32,000 nucleotides of DNA from Candidatus Harpocratesius repetitus (lineage in GTDB: Archaea > Asgardarchaeota > Lokiarchaeia > Sigyniarchaeales > Promethearchaeaceae). The DNA lies in assembly GCA_021498095.1 (NCBI GenBank), contig JAIZWK010000001.1:3510001-3542000 (forward strand), read 5' to 3'. Within the stretch, counting starts at the first letter, position 1; the number at the start of each line of letters is the position of its first letter. Of this stretch, positions 12,499 through 21,294 are shown piece by piece. The notes under the pieces were generated by a model. That model was given only the letters and a program-made list of their open reading frames with translations, was not told where the DNA came from and ran no database searches. A program made the position numbers and the translations under genes.

Positions 12499-12832
12499 TT
12501 TAATAATAGTTTAAGCAAAAATGAGTAAAAAGAACAACATGTATAATAATTTATGAAAAAAAAGATAATAATAAATCAAGCATGACTAATGGATTAACTG
12601 ATTAGTTTTTTAGAAATACTAATAATATAATATTACTGTTTATATCTTAAAATCTTCAATTTTATTCAACTCACTTAACATAATAATTCAAAAACATGAA
12701 ATTATATTAATAAAAGTAAAGCTCAAATATTGTATTCAAAATATAGTAGTTTAGAGATATTTAAACGAAAGTACGGAAAAAGAATAGAATAATAAAGAAA
12801 TAATAGAGAAAATTAGTCGATATTGATGAAAC

Positions 12833-13492
12833 ATGAAACGCACATTCCGATTACGCCCAATTTTTGCACCTATTGTCAAATTCTTAGCTAAGATTGCGAT
12901 AAATCTTAAAATTACTCCCAATTTTGCTACATGGTTAATGGTTTCATTTTCACTTATATCCTCACTTGGATTACTCTTTTTCCAGAGTTTTATTTGGTTT
13001 GGAGTTTGGATTTTTCTCACAGGGCTACTAGATGGAATAGATGGCGCTATTGCAAGAATGACTAAAAAAACCTCAAAGTTTGGAGGATTTTTTGACTCGA
13101 CTATGGATCGCATTTCTGAAAGTATTATTTTATCAGGATTGATATTATTCACACAAATTTTTCCAACGAATTATTCTCAATGGATATTACTTTTAACAAT
13201 AATTGGCTTTATATTCTCATATTTAATAAGTTATTCCAGAGCTCGTGCAGAATTAGAATTGAAAAGGAGTTTTGTAATTGATAATGATCGTTTTTCGATG
13301 AATATTGGAATCTTAGCACGCTCAGAAAGGTTATTTTATCTTTTTATTATGTCTTGTATTGTTCAGTTTACTTCCCCTCTAATTTTGCTGATATTTATGG
13401 GTTTTTATGTAGTTTTAACTGCTTGGACCTTTCTTGAGAGGTTTTTCACTTATAAATCATATCTGAATGAATTTGTTGAAACAAATGAATGA
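12833..13492 (+). CDS. CDP-alcohol phosphatidyltransferase (archaetidylinositol-phosphate synthase-like)
   Basis: DGIDGAIARMTKKTSKFGGFFDSTMDRISE is the DxxDGxxAR...GxxxDxxxD signature; hydrophobic helices. Confidence 0.92.
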   Translation: MKRTFRLRPIFAPIVKFLAKIAINLKITPNFATWLMVSFSLISSLGLLFFQSFIWFGVWIFLTGLLDGIDGAIARMTKKTSKFGGFFDSTMDRISESIILSGLILFTQIFPTNYSQWILLLTIIGFIFSYLISYSRARAELELKRSFVIDNDRFSMNIGILARSERLFYLFIMSCIVQFTSPLILLIFMGFYVVLTAWTFLERFFTYKSYLNEFVETNE

Positions 13493-13698
13493 TCCATTCA
13501 ATTTTTTCAATTCTCGCTCATATTTACAATAGAAAAGAGTTAAATCCATAGAATTAACGTAAGTCATGAAAATAGAATGTAAAGACGATCATAGAATCAA
13601 AATAATAATACTATTCTTATATAAATAATTCAAATTTTCAAATTTTGTAAAGAAATAACCGATAAAAGAATATATACAATTGAACAAATATATAATAT

Positions 13699-13756
13699 AA
13701 GAGTTGTAATCGGAAATAAAGACTCTACTTAAGTATTATTTCCAATTGTAATTCTT
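13699..13756 (+). ncRNA. 21-bp RNA hairpin in the rnc leader (candidate RNase III site or small-RNA precursor)
   Basis: 13699-13719 pairs with 13736-13756: 17 Watson-Crick, 3 G·U (on the + transcript), 1 C·A; 16-nt loop. Confidence 0.65.
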
Positions 13757-13828
13757 TACATGCTCAATCCTTAAATTGATCTTGGGTTAAATCTTATTTC
13801 AATTTTAGAGATATGGAGGAACATACAT

Positions 13829-14632
13829 ATGGCTCAAGAAATCTCTCCAGAATTTAAAGAAAAACTATTTAATTGGCTAAAAAAACAAAGAATCATAAAC
13901 ATGGACATAAAAATCTTAATTACAGCCTTCACCCATCCATCATATAAAGGAGTCTTTCCAGAAGTGGAAGATTATGAAAGACTAGAATTCTTAGGAGATG
14001 CGGTTTTGGATCTGGTTTCTGCAGAAGATTTAATCAAACACAGCTCTGCGAATGAAGGAGTATTAACAGAACGTCGAAAACAATTAGTAAATAATGAAAA
14101 TCTTTCCCAAATTTTTGATAGATTAAAGATATCATCTTTTATTCGAACTGCACCTCATTACAAGCCTTCTATTAAGGATAAAGCAAATTTTATTGAAGCC
14201 TTTTTTGGAGCTCTCTTTTTAGAGCACCGCTATGAATATTGCGTTATAGTTTGGCGACAATTTCAAGAAAAAATGGGTAAAATAAAAAAGAAGATTTATC
14301 ATGCTCCATTATCTCCTGAAGATGAACAAAATAAGGAAGAATTGAAACAATTTTATCGCTCAATTGGATTAACCCCAAAAAATGCAAAATCAATGTTACA
14401 AGAACTTAACCAAAAACAAGGATTAGATTTACCCAATTATGAATTAATTGAACATTTTGGACCTGACCATAATCCAACTTTTCGAGTAAAAGTATCAGGT
14501 ATTTTTTTCACAGGACCCCCAAAATGGACAAGATCAGCAATAGGAGAAGGTAAGAGTAAAAAAATTGCCGAAATTAGAGCTGCAGAGAAATTATGTGATC
14601 AAATCTATTTAGATTACATCCCGTTTGATTAA
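13829..14632 (+). CDS. rnc: Ribonuclease III (RNase III domain + dsRBD)
   Basis: ERLEFLGDAVL signature, ANFIEAFFGAL, C-terminal dsRBD (AKSMLQE...GPDH...GEGKSKKIAEIRAA); SD GGAGG at 13815-13819. Confidence 0.96.
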   Translation: MAQEISPEFKEKLFNWLKKQRIINMDIKILITAFTHPSYKGVFPEVEDYERLEFLGDAVLDLVSAEDLIKHSSANEGVLTERRKQLVNNENLSQIFDRLKISSFIRTAPHYKPSIKDKANFIEAFFGALFLEHRYEYCVIVWRQFQEKMGKIKKKIYHAPLSPEDEQNKEELKQFYRSIGLTPKNAKSMLQELNQKQGLDLPNYELIEHFGPDHNPTFRVKVSGIFFTGPPKWTRSAIGEGKSKKIAEIRAAEKLCDQIYLDYIPFD

Positions 14633-14689
14633 GAATAGAAATCAATGAAAGTGAAAAAAATAAAAAGGAAAATTTTTTATTAATATAAT

Positions 14690-14939
14690 AAGATCTCACG
14701 GAAAATGAACCGGAAAGTATCTGAAGGTAAATTGACCGCGAAGACTGTTATATTATTTAATTTATTCATAAGATGGTGCAAAATATAGAAATTTTGCATA
14801 AATTATGGATAAATTAAATATTATCTGTGTTCGCATTCATTGCTAGTATCTCCAGATGTTTTCCAGTTTATTTTACGAGAATTACTCTAGGTCATATTAG
14901 GATTATCTAAGAGAATTCTCTATTTTCCTGTGAGATTTT
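14690..14939 (+). ncRNA. ~250-nt branched structured RNA between rnc and ago
   Basis: Closing stem 14690-14706/14922-14939 (17 bp, 1 bulge); long hairpin ~14702-14874 with 25-, 22- and 8-bp segments; short hairpin 14877-14920; all paired by hand. Confidence 0.7.
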
Positions 14940-14959
14940 GATAAAAAAGTGGTATTGAT

Positions 14960-17413
14960 ATGTCAAAATCTCAAAATAAAGGAAGAAAATCAAATGATGC
15001 ACCTTTAGCATCCCCCTGCTGTCCACAGAAAAAGAAAATAGATCTTGAAATGAATCTTTTTCCTGTGAAGATTTCCAATCTTAAAATCAGTATATATTCA
15101 TGGTTAATTTTTCCAAAAATCGATAATTATAAAGTACAAAGAAATATTCTTGAAATTGCTTTAAGTGAAGAAGCATTATACGAATACATCATTCAAAAAA
15201 ACAAGATCTATCAAAAAAAAAGGCATCCAAATATAAAAAGAGTTGTGCTTTTTCAGAATAAAGAATTTCAAATTGAAATAAATCACCTTGAAACGGTTTA
15301 TCTTTTAGATAATCCAACACTTCAAAACGAAATTTTTGGAAGTATTTGCCAAACTGTGGGATTCGAGCAAATAGGACATAATTACTATTATTCAGCAGAA
15401 AGACAATCCTCACAACTCACACAATCTACAAAAGAATCATTAAAAAGGATATTTCCAGCAATTGAAATAGATGGAGGCAAATACTATTTAAAACAAGGAC
15501 TAACAACTGCGATTCATTCCACCAAGAAAAATTTTTCGATAGATCAAGGAAAAAATGCTATTTCAAATGTTGTTGAATTAGAGCAAACATCAAAACTCAT
15601 TCAAAAAAAGAATTTATTAGAAATAATAATGGATTTGAATAGAAAGGTTAAAGATCATCACAAGATTGAAAATTTACTCATTGGTTCAAGATTTATTACG
15701 CACTACAATAACAGAATATATACAATTCATGGAATTGCTTGGAATAAAGATCCTACTTCTACATTTCAAATTCGCTCAAAGTTGCATCAAAATTTAGAAA
15801 TCACTTTTGAAGAATACTACAAAAAGAATTATCAATTAAAAATTTCAGATCTCCATCAACCTTTAATTATTTATTATCCAATGTCTTCTCAAAAGAGTGC
15901 TACTTCATCAGGATCTCAAGATATACTCTACTTTTTACCAGAGTTTTGTCATCTTTTTGGACTATCAAACCTTGATGCTGATAATTTCAGAATTCGGCAA
16001 GAAATCACCCGAAATACCCAAATGTCACCTTCAGATAGATATAGAAAACTCAAAACATTTGTAGAGAACCAAGATATTCTTGAATTTTTTAAAGTATGGG
16101 GTTTAGATATCGATTCACGGATGATTTCTATGTCTGGAATAAAACTACCAAGTCTAGAGATACAGACTCAAACAGGTGTTTTTCCAATCAATTTTGAACA
16201 ATCAAATTGGCTTTCATTATTAAATCGCTCGCAAGTAATTGATGCTCCTGAATTAAAAAAGTGGATGATATTATATCCAAAAAAATCTATGTCTTTGCAA
16301 GAAGCAAGAAAATTTAGCAATGATTTTCAAAAAATTGCCCAACAAATGGGAATGGTATGTCGACCACCTCAATTACAGGGAGTTTTTGATATGACAAAGT
16401 TTCTGGCAATATTAAAGAAAAATCCTTCTCAACATCATATAAATTCAATCCAATTAATTCTCACAATTACCCCTAATAGGAACAAGACATGTTATCGGAA
16501 AATTAAACAGCTGTGTTATCGAGATCTGGGAATTGCCAATCAAAATGTTGTGCTTAAAAATTTAAGAGATCAAAAAAGAAGAATGCCAATAATCCGAAAT
16601 TTAGTAAGGCAAATTATTTGCAAGGTTCCAAATTTTAATACAAAATATGGCGGGGCTTTATGGAAAATCAAAAATAATTCCATCCCTGACAAAACTTTAA
16701 TTGTTGGAATTGATGTTTGGCATGGCCGTCCCGGAATAGACAAATCTATTGCCGGCATCGTCTTTTCAACTGATAAAGGCTTACATTATACAGCAAATTA
16801 TACAATAACTCCAAGAAAAGGACTGGAATTCATCCACAATTTAGGAAAAATCATAATTACACAACTACAGAATCATTATAACGCAACAAGACAATACTTT
16901 GAAAATATATTAATTTTTCGCGATGGAGTAGGAAACACCCAGTATAACAAGATTTTACAAGAAGAATTCAAGTCTATTCAACAAGAACTAACCAATTCAT
17001 CCATTTTTAGTGAAAAACATCCAAAAATTGCAATAATCTTGGTGAATAAACGAATAAATCGCCGGCTATTTCATAAAAACAAACAAGGACAGATATTGAA
17101 CCCCAAACCCGGAACTTTTATAGAAGATCAATATATAAAATCAGAATTTTCTAATTATTATTTAGTACCCCACTTTTCTCGTTTTGGAACAACCCGACCG
17201 ATTCATATTTCGGTAATTTATAACAATACAAAATACGTTAATTTCCAATTTGTTGAAATTGCAAATATTTTATGTCATTTGAATTACAATTGGGCAGGAA
17301 CAGTTCGCATACCAGCATCTGTGGAATATGCCCATAAAGTTGCCGACTTCATCGGATCAAATCAAATTACATCAATTGCACCAGAATTACTACAAACTCA
17401 ATTCTATTTGTAA
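14960..17413 (+). CDS. ago: Long eukaryote/PIWI-like Argonaute with catalytic DEDH tetrad (probably HrAgo1)
   Basis: PAZ (YNNRIY...TFEEYYKKNY...FLPEFC), MID (YRKIKQ...NQNV...QIICK), PIWI (GIDV D585, E623, RDG D655, YAHK H792, GTTRP, LCHLNYNW); 817 aa. Confidence 0.97.
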   Translation: MSKSQNKGRKSNDAPLASPCCPQKKKIDLEMNLFPVKISNLKISIYSWLIFPKIDNYKVQRNILEIALSEEALYEYIIQKNKIYQKKRHPNIKRVVLFQNKEFQIEINHLETVYLLDNPTLQNEIFGSICQTVGFEQIGHNYYYSAERQSSQLTQSTKESLKRIFPAIEIDGGKYYLKQGLTTAIHSTKKNFSIDQGKNAISNVVELEQTSKLIQKKNLLEIIMDLNRKVKDHHKIENLLIGSRFITHYNNRIYTIHGIAWNKDPTSTFQIRSKLHQNLEITFEEYYKKNYQLKISDLHQPLIIYYPMSSQKSATSSGSQDILYFLPEFCHLFGLSNLDADNFRIRQEITRNTQMSPSDRYRKLKTFVENQDILEFFKVWGLDIDSRMISMSGIKLPSLEIQTQTGVFPINFEQSNWLSLLNRSQVIDAPELKKWMILYPKKSMSLQEARKFSNDFQKIAQQMGMVCRPPQLQGVFDMTKFLAILKKNPSQHHINSIQLILTITPNRNKTCYRKIKQLCYRDLGIANQNVVLKNLRDQKRRMPIIRNLVRQIICKVPNFNTKYGGALWKIKNNSIPDKTLIVGIDVWHGRPGIDKSIAGIVFSTDKGLHYTANYTITPRKGLEFIHNLGKIIITQLQNHYNATRQYFENILIFRDGVGNTQYNKILQEEFKSIQQELTNSSIFSEKHPKIAIILVNKRINRRLFHKNKQGQILNPKPGTFIEDQYIKSEFSNYYLVPHFSRFGTTRPIHISVIYNNTKYVNFQFVEIANILCHLNYNWAGTVRIPASVEYAHKVADFIGSNQITSIAPELLQTQFYL

Positions 17414-17463: not shown

Positions 17464-20400
17464 ATGTCTCTGAAAAATTATCTAAACTCGAATAATCTTT
17501 ATTATGCAAGCATTTATGGACAAAAACTAAAAAAATTAACTTATCTTTTTCAAAATATTCGGGATTCTTTTCGCCCTTATATCCATTTTTTGGACAGAGC
17601 GATTGAAGCAGAGAAAGAAAGAGAGATTTCAGCCCTTTTTAAAATAGTCAAAGACGATTTTACGGTTTCTTTTAAACCAATCACAAAAAAGTTGAAGATA
17701 TTATCAGAAGGTTTTCTCTACTGCGAAGTAGAACAAGATTGGGTTCAATTATTAAATTTTGAAGACATTAACAATAATTATGAAGAATTTGATTGGTCTA
17801 ATTGTGAGAATTTTGAAATTAGTTATATGTCCGATGATGGAGCCAAAACAATAAAAATCTCTAAGAAGAATATTATAGTTTTTGAAGACGACGGAAAAAT
17901 AGATTCTATATATCTTAAGTTCCCAATGAATTATAATGATTCTTATGATTTCTATTATAAACGCGTGAGATTGCAGCTTGAAAAAGTCATTGAAGATCTT
18001 GATCTCATTGAAATAACACATCATGAATATGCACTTGATGTAATTGACATTGAGCATGCAGATTCTCAAAATAGTGTTGTAAAAATCCACTATAGCGGAG
18101 TAATCACGCCGGATGATATTGAACATCTAAGAATTAATGGATTACCGCTTCAAAACCCAAGATTCAAACAGATTTCAGATCTTGGGGATGTTTCAAAGAT
18201 ATTCATTGAAAACAATACTGGAAAAAGACAATTACAAATTCTTAGGAAAGATTTTAAAAAGAACTGTGTATTTGTAGAATATTTCCGTGAAAAAGGCGAT
18301 TATTCAATCTTTGGAGAGGATCAAGAACAGAATCGAATAGAAGTGAAAGAACTTAGATTTGAACCTATTAAAAAAATCCAATTTTTAAATAGAGATATTG
18401 AAACGTTATTCTCTCCTCAATTAATTAATGAAAATCGAAGAGGATTAAATGAATACGCCGTAGATATTAAACCATTACCTAAGAACGGTGAAAAGGTTCG
18501 AGCAGATAATGGAAACGAATATGAATGTATTATAAATAAAAAAAAAAAAAGAACTGAATTGAAGCTGAAATTATTAGAAGAAAACGAAGAAGACATGCAT
18601 GAAATCTCAGAAAAATCACCACTAGATTATTTTTTTGAGGATGATGTGAATGAAGTAATGGGTCATAAGATTTTTGAAATAGCAAAAAATAAAAAACTCA
18701 TTTGGACAATTATTAGAAAAAATCGGGAAGAACGAACAATTTCAATCAAGATCAGCAGCAAAAAAAATTATAAAAATGTAAAATATAATCTAGAACGAAT
18801 GAGTGAAAAGAATTATCCTCTTTATCTCAATCGAAATGTTTATCAATTAAAAATGGAAAGAAATTTCATCAATAGGTTAATGAAAAAACCACTAGATGAT
18901 TATCTCCCCCTTCTCCGATTAGGGGAATCTATTAAAGCAACTAAATATGAATGGGATATTTTTAACCCTTTGGATGAAAAAAAAATTGAATGGGAAATCC
19001 TTACGGAAAATGAGCGAGAAGGAACGGAAAAACAAAGACTATTTGTAGAAAAAGCATTGAATACTCCTGATTTTGCTTTCCTCGAAGGTCCTCCTGGATC
19101 TGGAAAAACAACAGCAATTATAGAATTAATTTTTCAATTAATAAAACAGAATAAAAAAATACTCTTAGCAGCTTCAACTCATGTTGCCATTGACAATGTT
19201 CTTGAAAGAATCAAAAAGTACAAAACAGAATGGTTTAATAGGATTTTACCACTCAGGATAGGAGATAGACACAATATTTCTTCAAAAATCGTAGAATTCC
19301 AAATTGATAATCTATTAAAAACGCACAAAAATGGCTTAGATGGATTGAATTCCCTTATTTTAGATGCTTCTAATTTGGTTTGTGGAACAACCATAGGGAT
19401 TTTAAAACATCCTTGGTTTGATCGAAAGAAGAATCGTAATGTAGATCGAAAAGTCTTTCCAATGTTTGATTATTTAATTATAGATGAATCCAGTAAAACT
19501 ACTTTCCAAGATTTTATTATACCTGCATTGTATGCAAAAAGATGGATTTTAGTTGGTGATATTAAGCAATTAGCACCCTATGCTGAAAATGACTATTTGA
19601 AAAGGTATTTTGAAAAATTAACAGATTATAATAATAAAAATATATTTAATTCTCATGCTCAAAAGGCAAATTATTTGATATTTTTGTTACTACGGCGCTT
19701 TTGCGATAAGTCTTCAAAAAAATTTTCAAAAAAATTAAAATTTTCTGAGAGAATCTGTTTTCCTACTGATGAATCTACTATAAAAGCGTTTTTAGAAGAA
19801 ATAAATAAAAGATATGAGCAAGATATATCAAAGGATCAAATTTTATCTCAAAAATTTCCTATTATCACAATAATAGTAAAGGATCGAACTGCTTTAGCAA
19901 ATGTCAATCCAAAAATAATTGAGATCACTGAATCTGATTTAAAAACCAATATTCAAAAATCTCTTCTATTAGTAGCATCAGATCTTATTTTAATTGATTG
20001 GGATATATATAATAGAAAGGAAAATATTATTCCACCTCATTTTTTTGTCTTAAATCATCCTAACTGGAAAAATAGTCAACAAGCTTTTCGATGGAGATAT
20101 ATCATCGACATTAATAAAAACAAAAATAATAATTCAAAACTTTTGATCGAAAATTTTGAGCGTATTAATCAAGATCTGTCTGAAAAGAACTGGGCTTCTG
20201 AGATCTCTTGGCGATTAATTAGATCCTATGAATTAAGAGCACTTCCAGATAATGAAACTTTGAAAAGATATTATAACGATTTATCTTTTCTCCTCCCGCG
20301 AAAAGATGATATCTCTCGTTTTATTATAAATGCTTGGAGTATTTCGCTACCATCAATTTTAGAGTCGTTACAATCTGGCATTGGCGAAAAATATAGAGGA

Positions 20401-21294
20401 CATATTGAAACAATTTTAAAAACGGGATTTCCAAATGAATTATTTTTTCAAAGGCATGTGAAACTAGAATATCAATTTCGTATGCACAGAGACATTTCAA
20501 AATTTCCACGAAAAGAATTCTATGACTCAAAAGCTCTTCAAGATAGCAAATTAACGGATAGAACATGGCAATATTTTAGATATAGAAGAAATCGAACTTA
20601 TGAAAGCCGCTTTACTTGGATAGATCTCTATTGGAAAGCAAAAAGGAATAGAAATGAAAAGGAGGCTAATCGATTAATCAAAGAATTAAAAGAGTTTCTT
20701 AAATGGGCAGAATCAAATCCAATGAATAATGAAGGAGAAAATTGGACTGTTGCCTGTATAACATTTTATAAAGGGCAAGAAAGACTCATTCGTGAAAAAC
20801 TTAGACAATTAACTGGTCTTACTAACAGAACGAATATCTTTTACTATGGAAATGTGGATATTCTCCTATATACTGTAGATAAAATTCAAGGAAGGGAAGC
20901 GGATATTATATTTTTATCTTTGGTTCGCAATGCACGATTTTATAATGGCAAATATCAAGGGGGAAATTTAGGATTTATGGATAATCCAAACCGTTTAAAC
21001 GTTGCCTTAACACGAGCCAAATATCAACTTGTTATATTAGGCCATATCCTAAATTTTCAAGATCAAAACAACAGTATCCATTTGAAGAATTTAACGAAAG
21101 CAGTTACAATAGAAAAACGTGAAACTCCAAACCGTCGACAAAATAGAGAAAATTGGATTAATAGCAAATCAAATCAAAGAAAAAATCAACAATTCATACC
21201 ATTTTCTGAAAAATCCCGTCGAAAACGGAAAAATTCTAAGAAAAATCATTCAAAAATTAATAAAAATACACGTAATCAATGGAGAAGAAGATAA
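17464..21294 (+). CDS. SF1B helicase of the Upf1/DNA2/NAM7 (MOV10-like) family
   Basis: GPPGSGKTT, ASTHVAIDNVLER, IIDESS, LVGDIKQL, QFRMH, TVDKIQGREAD, RLNVALTRAK; ~500-aa unknown N-terminus and basic C-terminal tail. Confidence 0.95.
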   Translation: MSLKNYLNSNNLYYASIYGQKLKKLTYLFQNIRDSFRPYIHFLDRAIEAEKEREISALFKIVKDDFTVSFKPITKKLKILSEGFLYCEVEQDWVQLLNFEDINNNYEEFDWSNCENFEISYMSDDGAKTIKISKKNIIVFEDDGKIDSIYLKFPMNYNDSYDFYYKRVRLQLEKVIEDLDLIEITHHEYALDVIDIEHADSQNSVVKIHYSGVITPDDIEHLRINGLPLQNPRFKQISDLGDVSKIFIENNTGKRQLQILRKDFKKNCVFVEYFREKGDYSIFGEDQEQNRIEVKELRFEPIKKIQFLNRDIETLFSPQLINENRRGLNEYAVDIKPLPKNGEKVRADNGNEYECIINKKKKRTELKLKLLEENEEDMHEISEKSPLDYFFEDDVNEVMGHKIFEIAKNKKLIWTIIRKNREERTISIKISSKKNYKNVKYNLERMSEKNYPLYLNRNVYQLKMERNFINRLMKKPLDDYLPLLRLGESIKATKYEWDIFNPLDEKKIEWEILTENEREGTEKQRLFVEKALNTPDFAFLEGPPGSGKTTAIIELIFQLIKQNKKILLAASTHVAIDNVLERIKKYKTEWFNRILPLRIGDRHNISSKIVEFQIDNLLKTHKNGLDGLNSLILDASNLVCGTTIGILKHPWFDRKKNRNVDRKVFPMFDYLIIDESSKTTFQDFIIPALYAKRWILVGDIKQLAPYAENDYLKRYFEKLTDYNNKNIFNSHAQKANYLIFLLLRRFCDKSSKKFSKKLKFSERICFPTDESTIKAFLEEINKRYEQDISKDQILSQKFPIITIIVKDRTALANVNPKIIEITESDLKTNIQKSLLLVASDLILIDWDIYNRKENIIPPHFFVLNHPNWKNSQQAFRWRYIIDINKNKNNNSKLLIENFERINQDLSEKNWASEISWRLIRSYELRALPDNETLKRYYNDLSFLLPRKDDISRFIINAWSISLPSILESLQSGIGEKYRGHIETILKTGFPNELFFQRHVKLEYQFRMHRDISKFPRKEFYDSKALQDSKLTDRTWQYFRYRRNRTYESRFTWIDLYWKAKRNRNEKEANRLIKELKEFLKWAESNPMNNEGENWTVACITFYKGQERLIREKLRQLTGLTNRTNIFYYGNVDILLYTVDKIQGREADIIFLSLVRNARFYNGKYQGGNLGFMDNPNRLNVALTRAKYQLVILGHILNFQDQNNSIHLKNLTKAVTIEKRETPNRRQNRENWINSKSNQRKNQQFIPFSEKSRRKRKNSKKNHSKINKNTRNQWRRR

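Follow-up and report, generated by a model that had tools for sequence, protein, structure and literature searches.

To our knowledge, RNase III has a sporadic distribution in Archaea, where neither its substrates nor its control are known. In "Candidatus Harpocratesius repetitus," whose genome is a single contig of 4.36 Mb (G000), an RNase III gene (rnc) lies beside the gene for a eukaryote-like Argonaute, HrAgo1, and RNase III is a proposed supplier of guides for that Argonaute. A stem-loop of 58 nt stands upstream of rnc. The locus therefore raises the question of whether this stem-loop is a site at which RNase III acts on its own message, a source of Argonaute guides, or something else. 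We analyzed a 32-kb stretch of this genome (G000:C1:3510001-3542000), which we call the window; coordinates are positions in the window unless a contig is named.

The rnc locus and its upstream stem-loop

Three genes stand in a row on the plus strand, with a structured RNA in the first gap:

14689..14940, plus strand: structured RNA between rnc and ago (MFE, -90.2 kcal/mol; z, -10.4), separate from the upstream hairpin but related to it
13829..14632, plus strand: rnc, encoding a class-1 RNase III of 267 aa with an RNase III domain and a dsRBD (Pfam PF00636, PF14622, and PF00035)
14960-17413, plus strand: ago, encoding the PAZ-PIWI Argonaute HrAgo1, second of the three genes
17464-21294, plus strand: SF1 helicase gene, third of the three genes

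This order agrees with the HrAgo1 operon of "Ca. Harpocratesius repetitus" as published (bioRxiv 10.1101/2023.12.14.571608). The stem-loop and the DNA between it and rnc are made up as follows:

13699-13756, plus strand: whole hairpin of the predicted rnc leader, 58 nt
13699..13719, plus strand: 5' arm of the stem; its columns are 67% identical across the four lineages described below
13736..13756, plus strand: 3' arm of the stem; 21 column pairs, with 92.9% of cells paired and five pairs changed on both sides
13720..13735, plus strand: apical part of the hairpin; its 16-nt loop includes a 3-bp stem (13722-13724 paired with 13732-13734); sequence not conserved
13757..13828, plus strand: remainder of the predicted leader, 72 nt, not conserved, with a Shine-Dalgarno sequence, GGAGG, at 13815-13819

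A preliminary description had placed the hairpin at these coordinates, 72 nt from the rnc start codon, and both statements were correct: the ATG at 13829 is 72 nt from the last paired base. The same description gave the stem as 21 bp with three G·U pairs. The 21 positions were confirmed, as were the three wobbles (G13703·U13752, G13706·U13749, and U13707·G13748), which are valid on the plus strand only. Pairing was not complete, however, since C13711 faces A13744 in a C·A mismatch; the stem thus has 17 Watson-Crick and 3 G·U pairs, or 20 pairs over 21 positions. The MFE of the hairpin was -16.0 to -16.5 kcal/mol, with z scores of -3.8 to -4.4 relative to dinucleotide shuffles. AT-rich, TATA-like DNA had also been reported upstream of the hairpin, and we found it there, as AATATATA at 13669-13676 and ATATATAATATA further down.

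To judge how often such a stem arises by chance, we scanned the whole genome for stems of 21 positions with at least 20 pairs and loops of 3 to 30 nt, and did the same after shuffling the genome within 100-nt blocks. The genome, which has 28% GC, gave 34 raw matches on the plus strand and 42 on the minus strand (about 38 loci), and the block-shuffled genome gave 8 to 28 matches per strand. About 0.2 stems of such quality are expected per 32-kb window. Judged alone, the Harpocratesius hairpin did not stand out in a genome of this composition. It is its conservation in other genomes that sets it far above chance.

Conservation, strand, and distribution of the stem-loop

We oriented close homologues of rnc by gene and examined the DNA upstream of each. 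The preliminary description had suggested looking for conservation upstream of rnc in related Lokiarchaeia, and a homologous stem-loop was indeed present in three other lineages, on the rnc strand. The carriers besides Harpocratesius are G012, a "Promethearchaeum sp." MAG of another genus (74% complete), the metagenome contigs L062 and L072, and a GC-rich metagenome contig, L064. The spacer between the hairpin and the rnc ATG is 81 nt in G012, 36 nt in L062 and L072, and 41 nt in L064. The RNase III proteins of the carrier lineages are only 50 to 61% identical, so that silent sites are probably saturated.

In the alignment of the four lineages, the arms were 67 to 68% identical, compared with a background of 28 to 30% for the loop and flanks. 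Pairing was retained in 92.9% of the pair cells, versus 40 to 56% when the partners were slid. Five stem pairs showed compensatory changes, with both sides changed among the four sequences. The covariation score was 0.444, versus 0.237 ± 0.057 in shuffles, and 0 of 500 shuffles reached 0.444, in a comparison of only four independent sequences. RNAalifold recovered the same helix unaided from these sequences, and the consensus fold retained the 3-bp apical extension. In each of the four lineages the helix is made up of 21 aligned positions, of which 19 to 21 are paired; the C·A mismatch of the Harpocratesius hairpin is not kept in the upstream hairpins of the other three. The conserved core of the arms reads AAUYGG on one side and CCAAUU on the other, which suggests sequence-specific recognition. 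Such recognition would be atypical for a bacterial RNase III and could mean that another protein is involved. On the strength of this alignment, we conclude that the hairpin is a genuine RNA structure kept in four lineages.

The strand on which the element folds was evident from three comparisons. Across the four hairpins there are 16 G·U pairs versus 2 A·C mismatches. Plus-strand MFEs were -16, -22.2, -19.8, and -26 kcal/mol, versus -14, -12.1, -7, and -24 kcal/mol for the minus strand, and the minus strand of the L062 hairpin had no significant fold. Finally, the covariance model R1 gave scores of 68 to 82 bits on the plus strand and 32 to 35 bits on the minus strand. Together, these data indicate that the hairpin folds as sense-strand RNA.

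The element is single copy and not universal. Of 151 Lokiarchaeia genomes, R1 found it in two, G000 and G012, with a single plus-strand copy in each that lies before rnc. A 191-nt BLAST query of the hairpin region found no second copy in G000. With filters on or off, R1 detected no element near about 25 to 30 other rnc homologues searched, and the hairpin was missing by R1 both upstream of the rnc of a genome of the same genus (G002) and at L065, the nearest relative of L064 among the homologues with DNA. A phylum-wide rnc search had contributed 17 loci, none with the hairpin, and a protein-guided scan of genome contigs returned only the two Asgard loci already known. Viral contigs contained no family member; the 84 matches to the core motif found there were palindromic chance matches, one of which scored 30.9 bits, compared with 68 to 82 for members. 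The four carriers are scattered through one protein-tree clade of about 44 RNase III sequences, in which hairpin status was determined for a minority, and this scatter is consistent with an old element that was lost repeatedly.

A second rnc in G000 (G000:C1:58393-59184; L241) is a 68% identical paralogue that starts 31 nt after a co-directional 162-aa ORF. R1 found no leader hairpin at this paralogue, which suggests that the two rnc genes of G000 are differently controlled.

Several other identities for the element were considered and rejected. It is not a dispersed repeat of the MITE or REP-like palindrome type, with one copy in G000, one in G012, and none in viral contigs. An archaeal oligo-T terminator of the upstream gene does not fit either: neither L064 nor the window has a run of T after the hairpin, and the upstream gene is divergent in G012. 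A leader peptide was dismissed because the stem is followed only by a nonconserved frame of four codons. A simple search pattern, GGAAAT-N(8-30)-ATTTCCAAT, matched nearly every one of 161 genomes of the class and was uninformative.

Predicted start of the rnc message and proposed self-regulation

Upstream of the stem-loop lies a candidate promoter:

13660..13676, plus strand: predicted promoter, in which a TATA-like octamer, AATATATA (13669-13676), comes after a BRE-like run of purines, CGATAAAAG

Between this octamer and the first paired base lie 22 nt. Relative to that base the octamer occupies -30 to -23 in Harpocratesius, and the octamers of the homologues occupy -29 to -22, -28 to -21, and -31 to -24; in all four lineages the octamer ends 20 to 23 nt before the first paired base. 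In L064, where local GC is 45%, no octamer other than TTTAATAT is AT-rich within the 70 nt upstream. In Archaea, transcripts begin about 23 bp after the TATA box (PMC4247193). This promoter geometry and the constant spacing in the four lineages together predict that the rnc mRNA begins at the base of the helix, and we infer that the stem-loop would lie at the very 5' end of the message. Other TATA-like runs, at 13617-13632 and 13688-13698, compete with this assignment, as such runs do in the AT-rich genomes among the carriers, and the run at 13688-13698 would place the start inside the 5' arm. In G012, rnc needs its own promoter in the gap because the upstream gene is divergent. A purine-rich, Shine-Dalgarno-like motif lies outside the hairpin in the two homologues where it was read.

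The tRNA genes of G000 provide a view of promoters in the same genome. A (C/G)AAAA-TTTT(T)A(A/T)A box recurs about 45 to 55 nt before the mature 5' end among 21 tRNA genes, a position that implies tRNA leaders of about 20 to 25 nt. These promoters resemble the predicted rnc promoter in having an A-rich BRE and a T/A-rich box. ARAGORN found only 21 tRNAs in G000, which suggests that it missed many tRNA genes, perhaps intron-containing ones.

The reading we favor is that the leader hairpin is a feedback site like E. coli rncO, though unrelated to it in sequence, where RNase III acts on its own message; we put this at about an even chance. Under this scheme, transcription would start about 23 bp downstream of the TATA-like box (13669-13676), which would place a helix of about two turns at the 5' end of the mRNA. 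This helix would shield the rnc message for as long as it stays intact. With free RNase III in excess, the dsRBD and the catalytic dimer would bind and cut the helix, leaving an unstructured 5'-monophosphate end. From this new end, beta-CASP ribonucleases acting 5' to 3' would remove the message, and synthesis of RNase III would fall. Two beta-CASP ribonuclease genes are present in G000. The start site, the binding and cutting of the helix by RNase III, and the sign of the effect are all inferred steps of this scheme.

Known RNase III biology offers precedents for the scheme. An idealized bacterial RNase III substrate is 22 bp long, or two turns (PMC3867540), and the four hairpins, with 21 positions and 19 to 21 pairs, match the substrate length of class-1 RNase III (about 20 to 22 bp of dsRNA with few interruptions). 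In E. coli, the enzyme cleaves a hairpin within the 5' UTR of rnc, and the resulting unstructured 5'-monophosphate end triggers decay (PMC3867540). Feedback by RNase III through its own mRNA is well documented for E. coli (PMC3867540), Streptomyces coelicolor, and Staphylococcus aureus (PMC3386247). Autoregulation of this kind had been suggested in the preliminary description, and the suggestion held up in part. In its favor, the element is conserved with compensatory changes in four lineages, occurs in single copy, folds on the sense strand, and has about two helical turns. Against it, the element is missing from most rnc homologues, including the paralogue in the same genome. If the hairpin serves feedback, the element would be lineage specific.

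The protein itself bears on whether such cutting is plausible. RNase III of the window has the ERLEFLGD motif and the glutamate of the second motif, and the equivalents of E. coli E41, D45, and E117 are present. The equivalent of D114, one of four canonical metal-binding acids, is Asn in this Asgard clade (the N of KANFIEAFFGA in the window protein); this position is Ser in L064 and G064 and Asp in the Argonaute-linked rnc of G005. Among 122 other RNase III homologues it is D in 102, G in 10, N in 7, A in 2, and C in 1. Since about 16% of homologues thus also lack Asp there, the Asn puts activity of the enzyme in doubt but does not exclude it. When the RNase III domain was compared by sequence with proteins of solved structure, plant DCL4 and human Drosha ranked first (E, 4e-18 to 3e-17), with a bacterial RNase III structure marginally behind (E, 5e-17).

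The structured RNA downstream of rnc repeats part of the leader hairpin. Its basal helix carries the hairpin core as AAC-C-GGAAA opposite UUUCC-A-GUU, with the same C·A mismatch. G012 has a counterpart downstream of its own rnc (L004:2440-2790; z, -5.1), in which AAUCGGAAC lies opposite GUUUCCAAU, and the core AAYCGGAA/UUCCARU is common to both downstream structures and the leader hairpin. The downstream structured RNA is absent from L062 and L064. As a lead, the common core would fit a single protein that binds both the leader hairpin and the downstream structure, with Rnc the obvious candidate. Long-range pairing between the two structures was considered and rejected, since the common 9-nt motif gives a helix no better than the local one.

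The same observations also fit a leader element that works independently of RNase III, which we consider unlikely but worth taking seriously. Such an element could be a constitutive stabilizer that guards the 5' end from 5'-to-3' exonucleases, or it could be bound by a different RNA-binding protein that recognizes AAUYGG/CCAAUU. The predicted 5'-terminal position would suit it, the core is conserved beyond what pairing requires and, in two genomes, is found again in the large structure that follows rnc, and one catalytic residue of the enzyme is noncanonical. Nevertheless, the hairpin occurs once per genome and only before rnc, whereas one would expect other genes to have a generic stabilizer or regulon site as well, and the length of the helix matches that of an RNase III substrate.

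It is less probable still that RNase III cuts the hairpin with a positive or neutral outcome, maturing the transcript by removal of a hindering 5' helix, as in S. aureus cspA. The helix is RNase III-substrate-like and linked to rnc, and leader cleavage with a positive outcome is documented (PMC3386247). However, the Shine-Dalgarno sequence and start codon lie 36 to 81 nt outside the helix and so are not masked by it. Positive feedback on a nuclease would also be unusual, the known rnc cases being negative.

We see little prospect for an element that acts as DNA, whether as a palindromic operator at the rnc promoter or as a single-stranded DNA hairpin through which an rnc cassette recombines or moves. 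With its AATTGG...CCAATT core, the element does contain a conserved inverted repeat adjoining the predicted promoter, and the gene contexts of rnc vary among genomes. The mismatches, though, are strongly asymmetric by strand (16 G·U versus 2 A·C), five positions keep pairing rather than sequence, the half-sites are about 30 bp apart, there is a single copy per genome, and no recombinase or transposase was noted beside any copy among the neighboring ORFs scanned. A transcription-factor operator palindrome in particular is disfavored by the lack of strand-symmetric half-site conservation, given the 16-to-2 ratio of G·U to A·C and the five covarying pairs.

A possible Argonaute link and comparison with known RNase III circuits

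A further proposal of the preliminary description was that the hairpin might be a second small-RNA precursor for Argonaute. The gene neighborhoods of the four carrier loci have nothing in common but rnc. In L062, rnc is followed by an ArsR-type regulator, an unknown gene, and a class-I tRNA synthetase; in L064, by an unknown 261-aa ORF; and in G012, by unknown ORFs. Argonaute was absent from the available flanks of the other three carriers (L004, which is the G012 locus, L062, and L064), and the query used detected no HrAgo1-like gene in G012, a genome that is 74% complete. The only other rnc-Argonaute neighborhood among the homologues searched, G005:C109:8235-11991 (L006), has no R1 hairpin; its Argonaute is 31% identical to HrAgo1 over residues 218 to 817, and the gap between rnc and ago is about 1.2 kb. 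In G000, no site had fewer than three mismatches to either arm, and counts of weaker matches fell inside the shuffled range. We concluded that the hairpin goes with rnc, not with Argonaute.

These results do not support a guide precursor, because Argonaute was not found with the other carriers, the hairpin is absent from G005, and arm targets are no more frequent than chance. A pre-miRNA-like precursor from which RNase III would release an HrAgo1 guide of about 21 nt is accordingly a poor prospect. The arms are 21 nt long, rnc, ago, and the helicase gene share one locus, and the 3' arm starts with U, the 5' nucleotide that HrAgo1 prefers (10.1101/2023.12.14.571608). The hairpin nonetheless occurs where Argonaute was not found (the L062 and L064 flanks and, with the query used, the 74%-complete G012); the one other rnc-Argonaute locus found lacks it; the genome offers no site within fewer than three mismatches of either arm, with weaker matches as in shuffles; and a class-1 RNase III has no PAZ ruler with which to measure 21 nt. 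The resemblance to pre-miRNA and Dicer substrates consists of a stem of about 21 bp by an RNase III gene and a eukaryote-like Argonaute; the archaeal hairpin differs in occurring without Argonaute, in having no targets, and in facing an enzyme without a measuring domain. A dual role, in which cutting of the leader helix serves feedback and also frees a duplex of about 21 nt that is loaded into HrAgo1, seems to us a similarly long shot. If true, it would make the duplex a self-derived proto-microRNA in an archaeon, with an Argonaute link added in Harpocratesius onto an older circuit of rnc alone.

A chance inverted repeat in AT-rich intergenic DNA can be dismissed: stems equally good do appear about 16 times per strand in the shuffled genome, but position, sequence, and pairing are kept in four lineages with covariation, which already refutes it.

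We compared the hairpin of the favored feedback reading with E. coli rncO (Rfam RF00552). A cmscan of positions 12500-15500 found no Rfam family, rncO included, that matched the hairpin region at E values up to 10, and the archaeal hairpin is therefore not a member of the rncO family. In E. coli, rncO is a post-transcriptional operator in the leader of rnc-era-recO (Matsunaga et al. 1996, as summarized in PMC3867540). Both are sense-strand hairpins in front of an RNase III gene, in a leader that is predicted in the archaeal case, and in both a cut, here proposed, would expose a 5'-monophosphate end. They share no match in sequence or structure: rncO is an irregular leader of several stems, whereas the archaeal element is a single, near-perfect helix of 21 positions at the predicted 5' end. 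The hosts also differ; rncO is bacterial, and in Archaea RNase III occurs sporadically and no role in decay is known for RNase E.

Other self-regulating RNase III systems allow a looser comparison. In the S. coelicolor absB operon transcripts and S. aureus rnc, RNase III cuts a conserved stem-loop in its own transcript and so restrains its own synthesis (PMC3386247), as we propose here. The site of such Gram-positive feedback varies by lineage, as does the archaeal hairpin. The S. aureus rnc site falls within the coding sequence and is cleaved on a single strand, whereas the archaeal site is upstream of the Shine-Dalgarno sequence. Among eukaryotes, Drosha cleaves hairpins in the 5' UTR of DGCR8 mRNA, by which the Microprocessor regulates itself. 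There, too, an RNase III that processes dsRNA targets a hairpin in the leader of a gene of its own pathway, but the system is nuclear and the hairpins are pri-miRNA-like and lie in the mRNA of the partner; no homology is implied. Neither the RNase III literature searched nor the searched passages of the HrAgo1 report describe a leader element of an archaeal rnc.

The conserved, single-copy, two-turn helix predicted on the message of the enzyme itself provides a first specific candidate for the natural substrate of an archaeal RNase III. As an RNA of 58 nt, it lets one ask whether an Asgard RNase III cuts dsRNA, where it cuts, what sizes the products have, and whether they are loaded into HrAgo1. 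If the feedback reading is true, RNase III self-regulation, so far bacterial, would extend to an archaeon.
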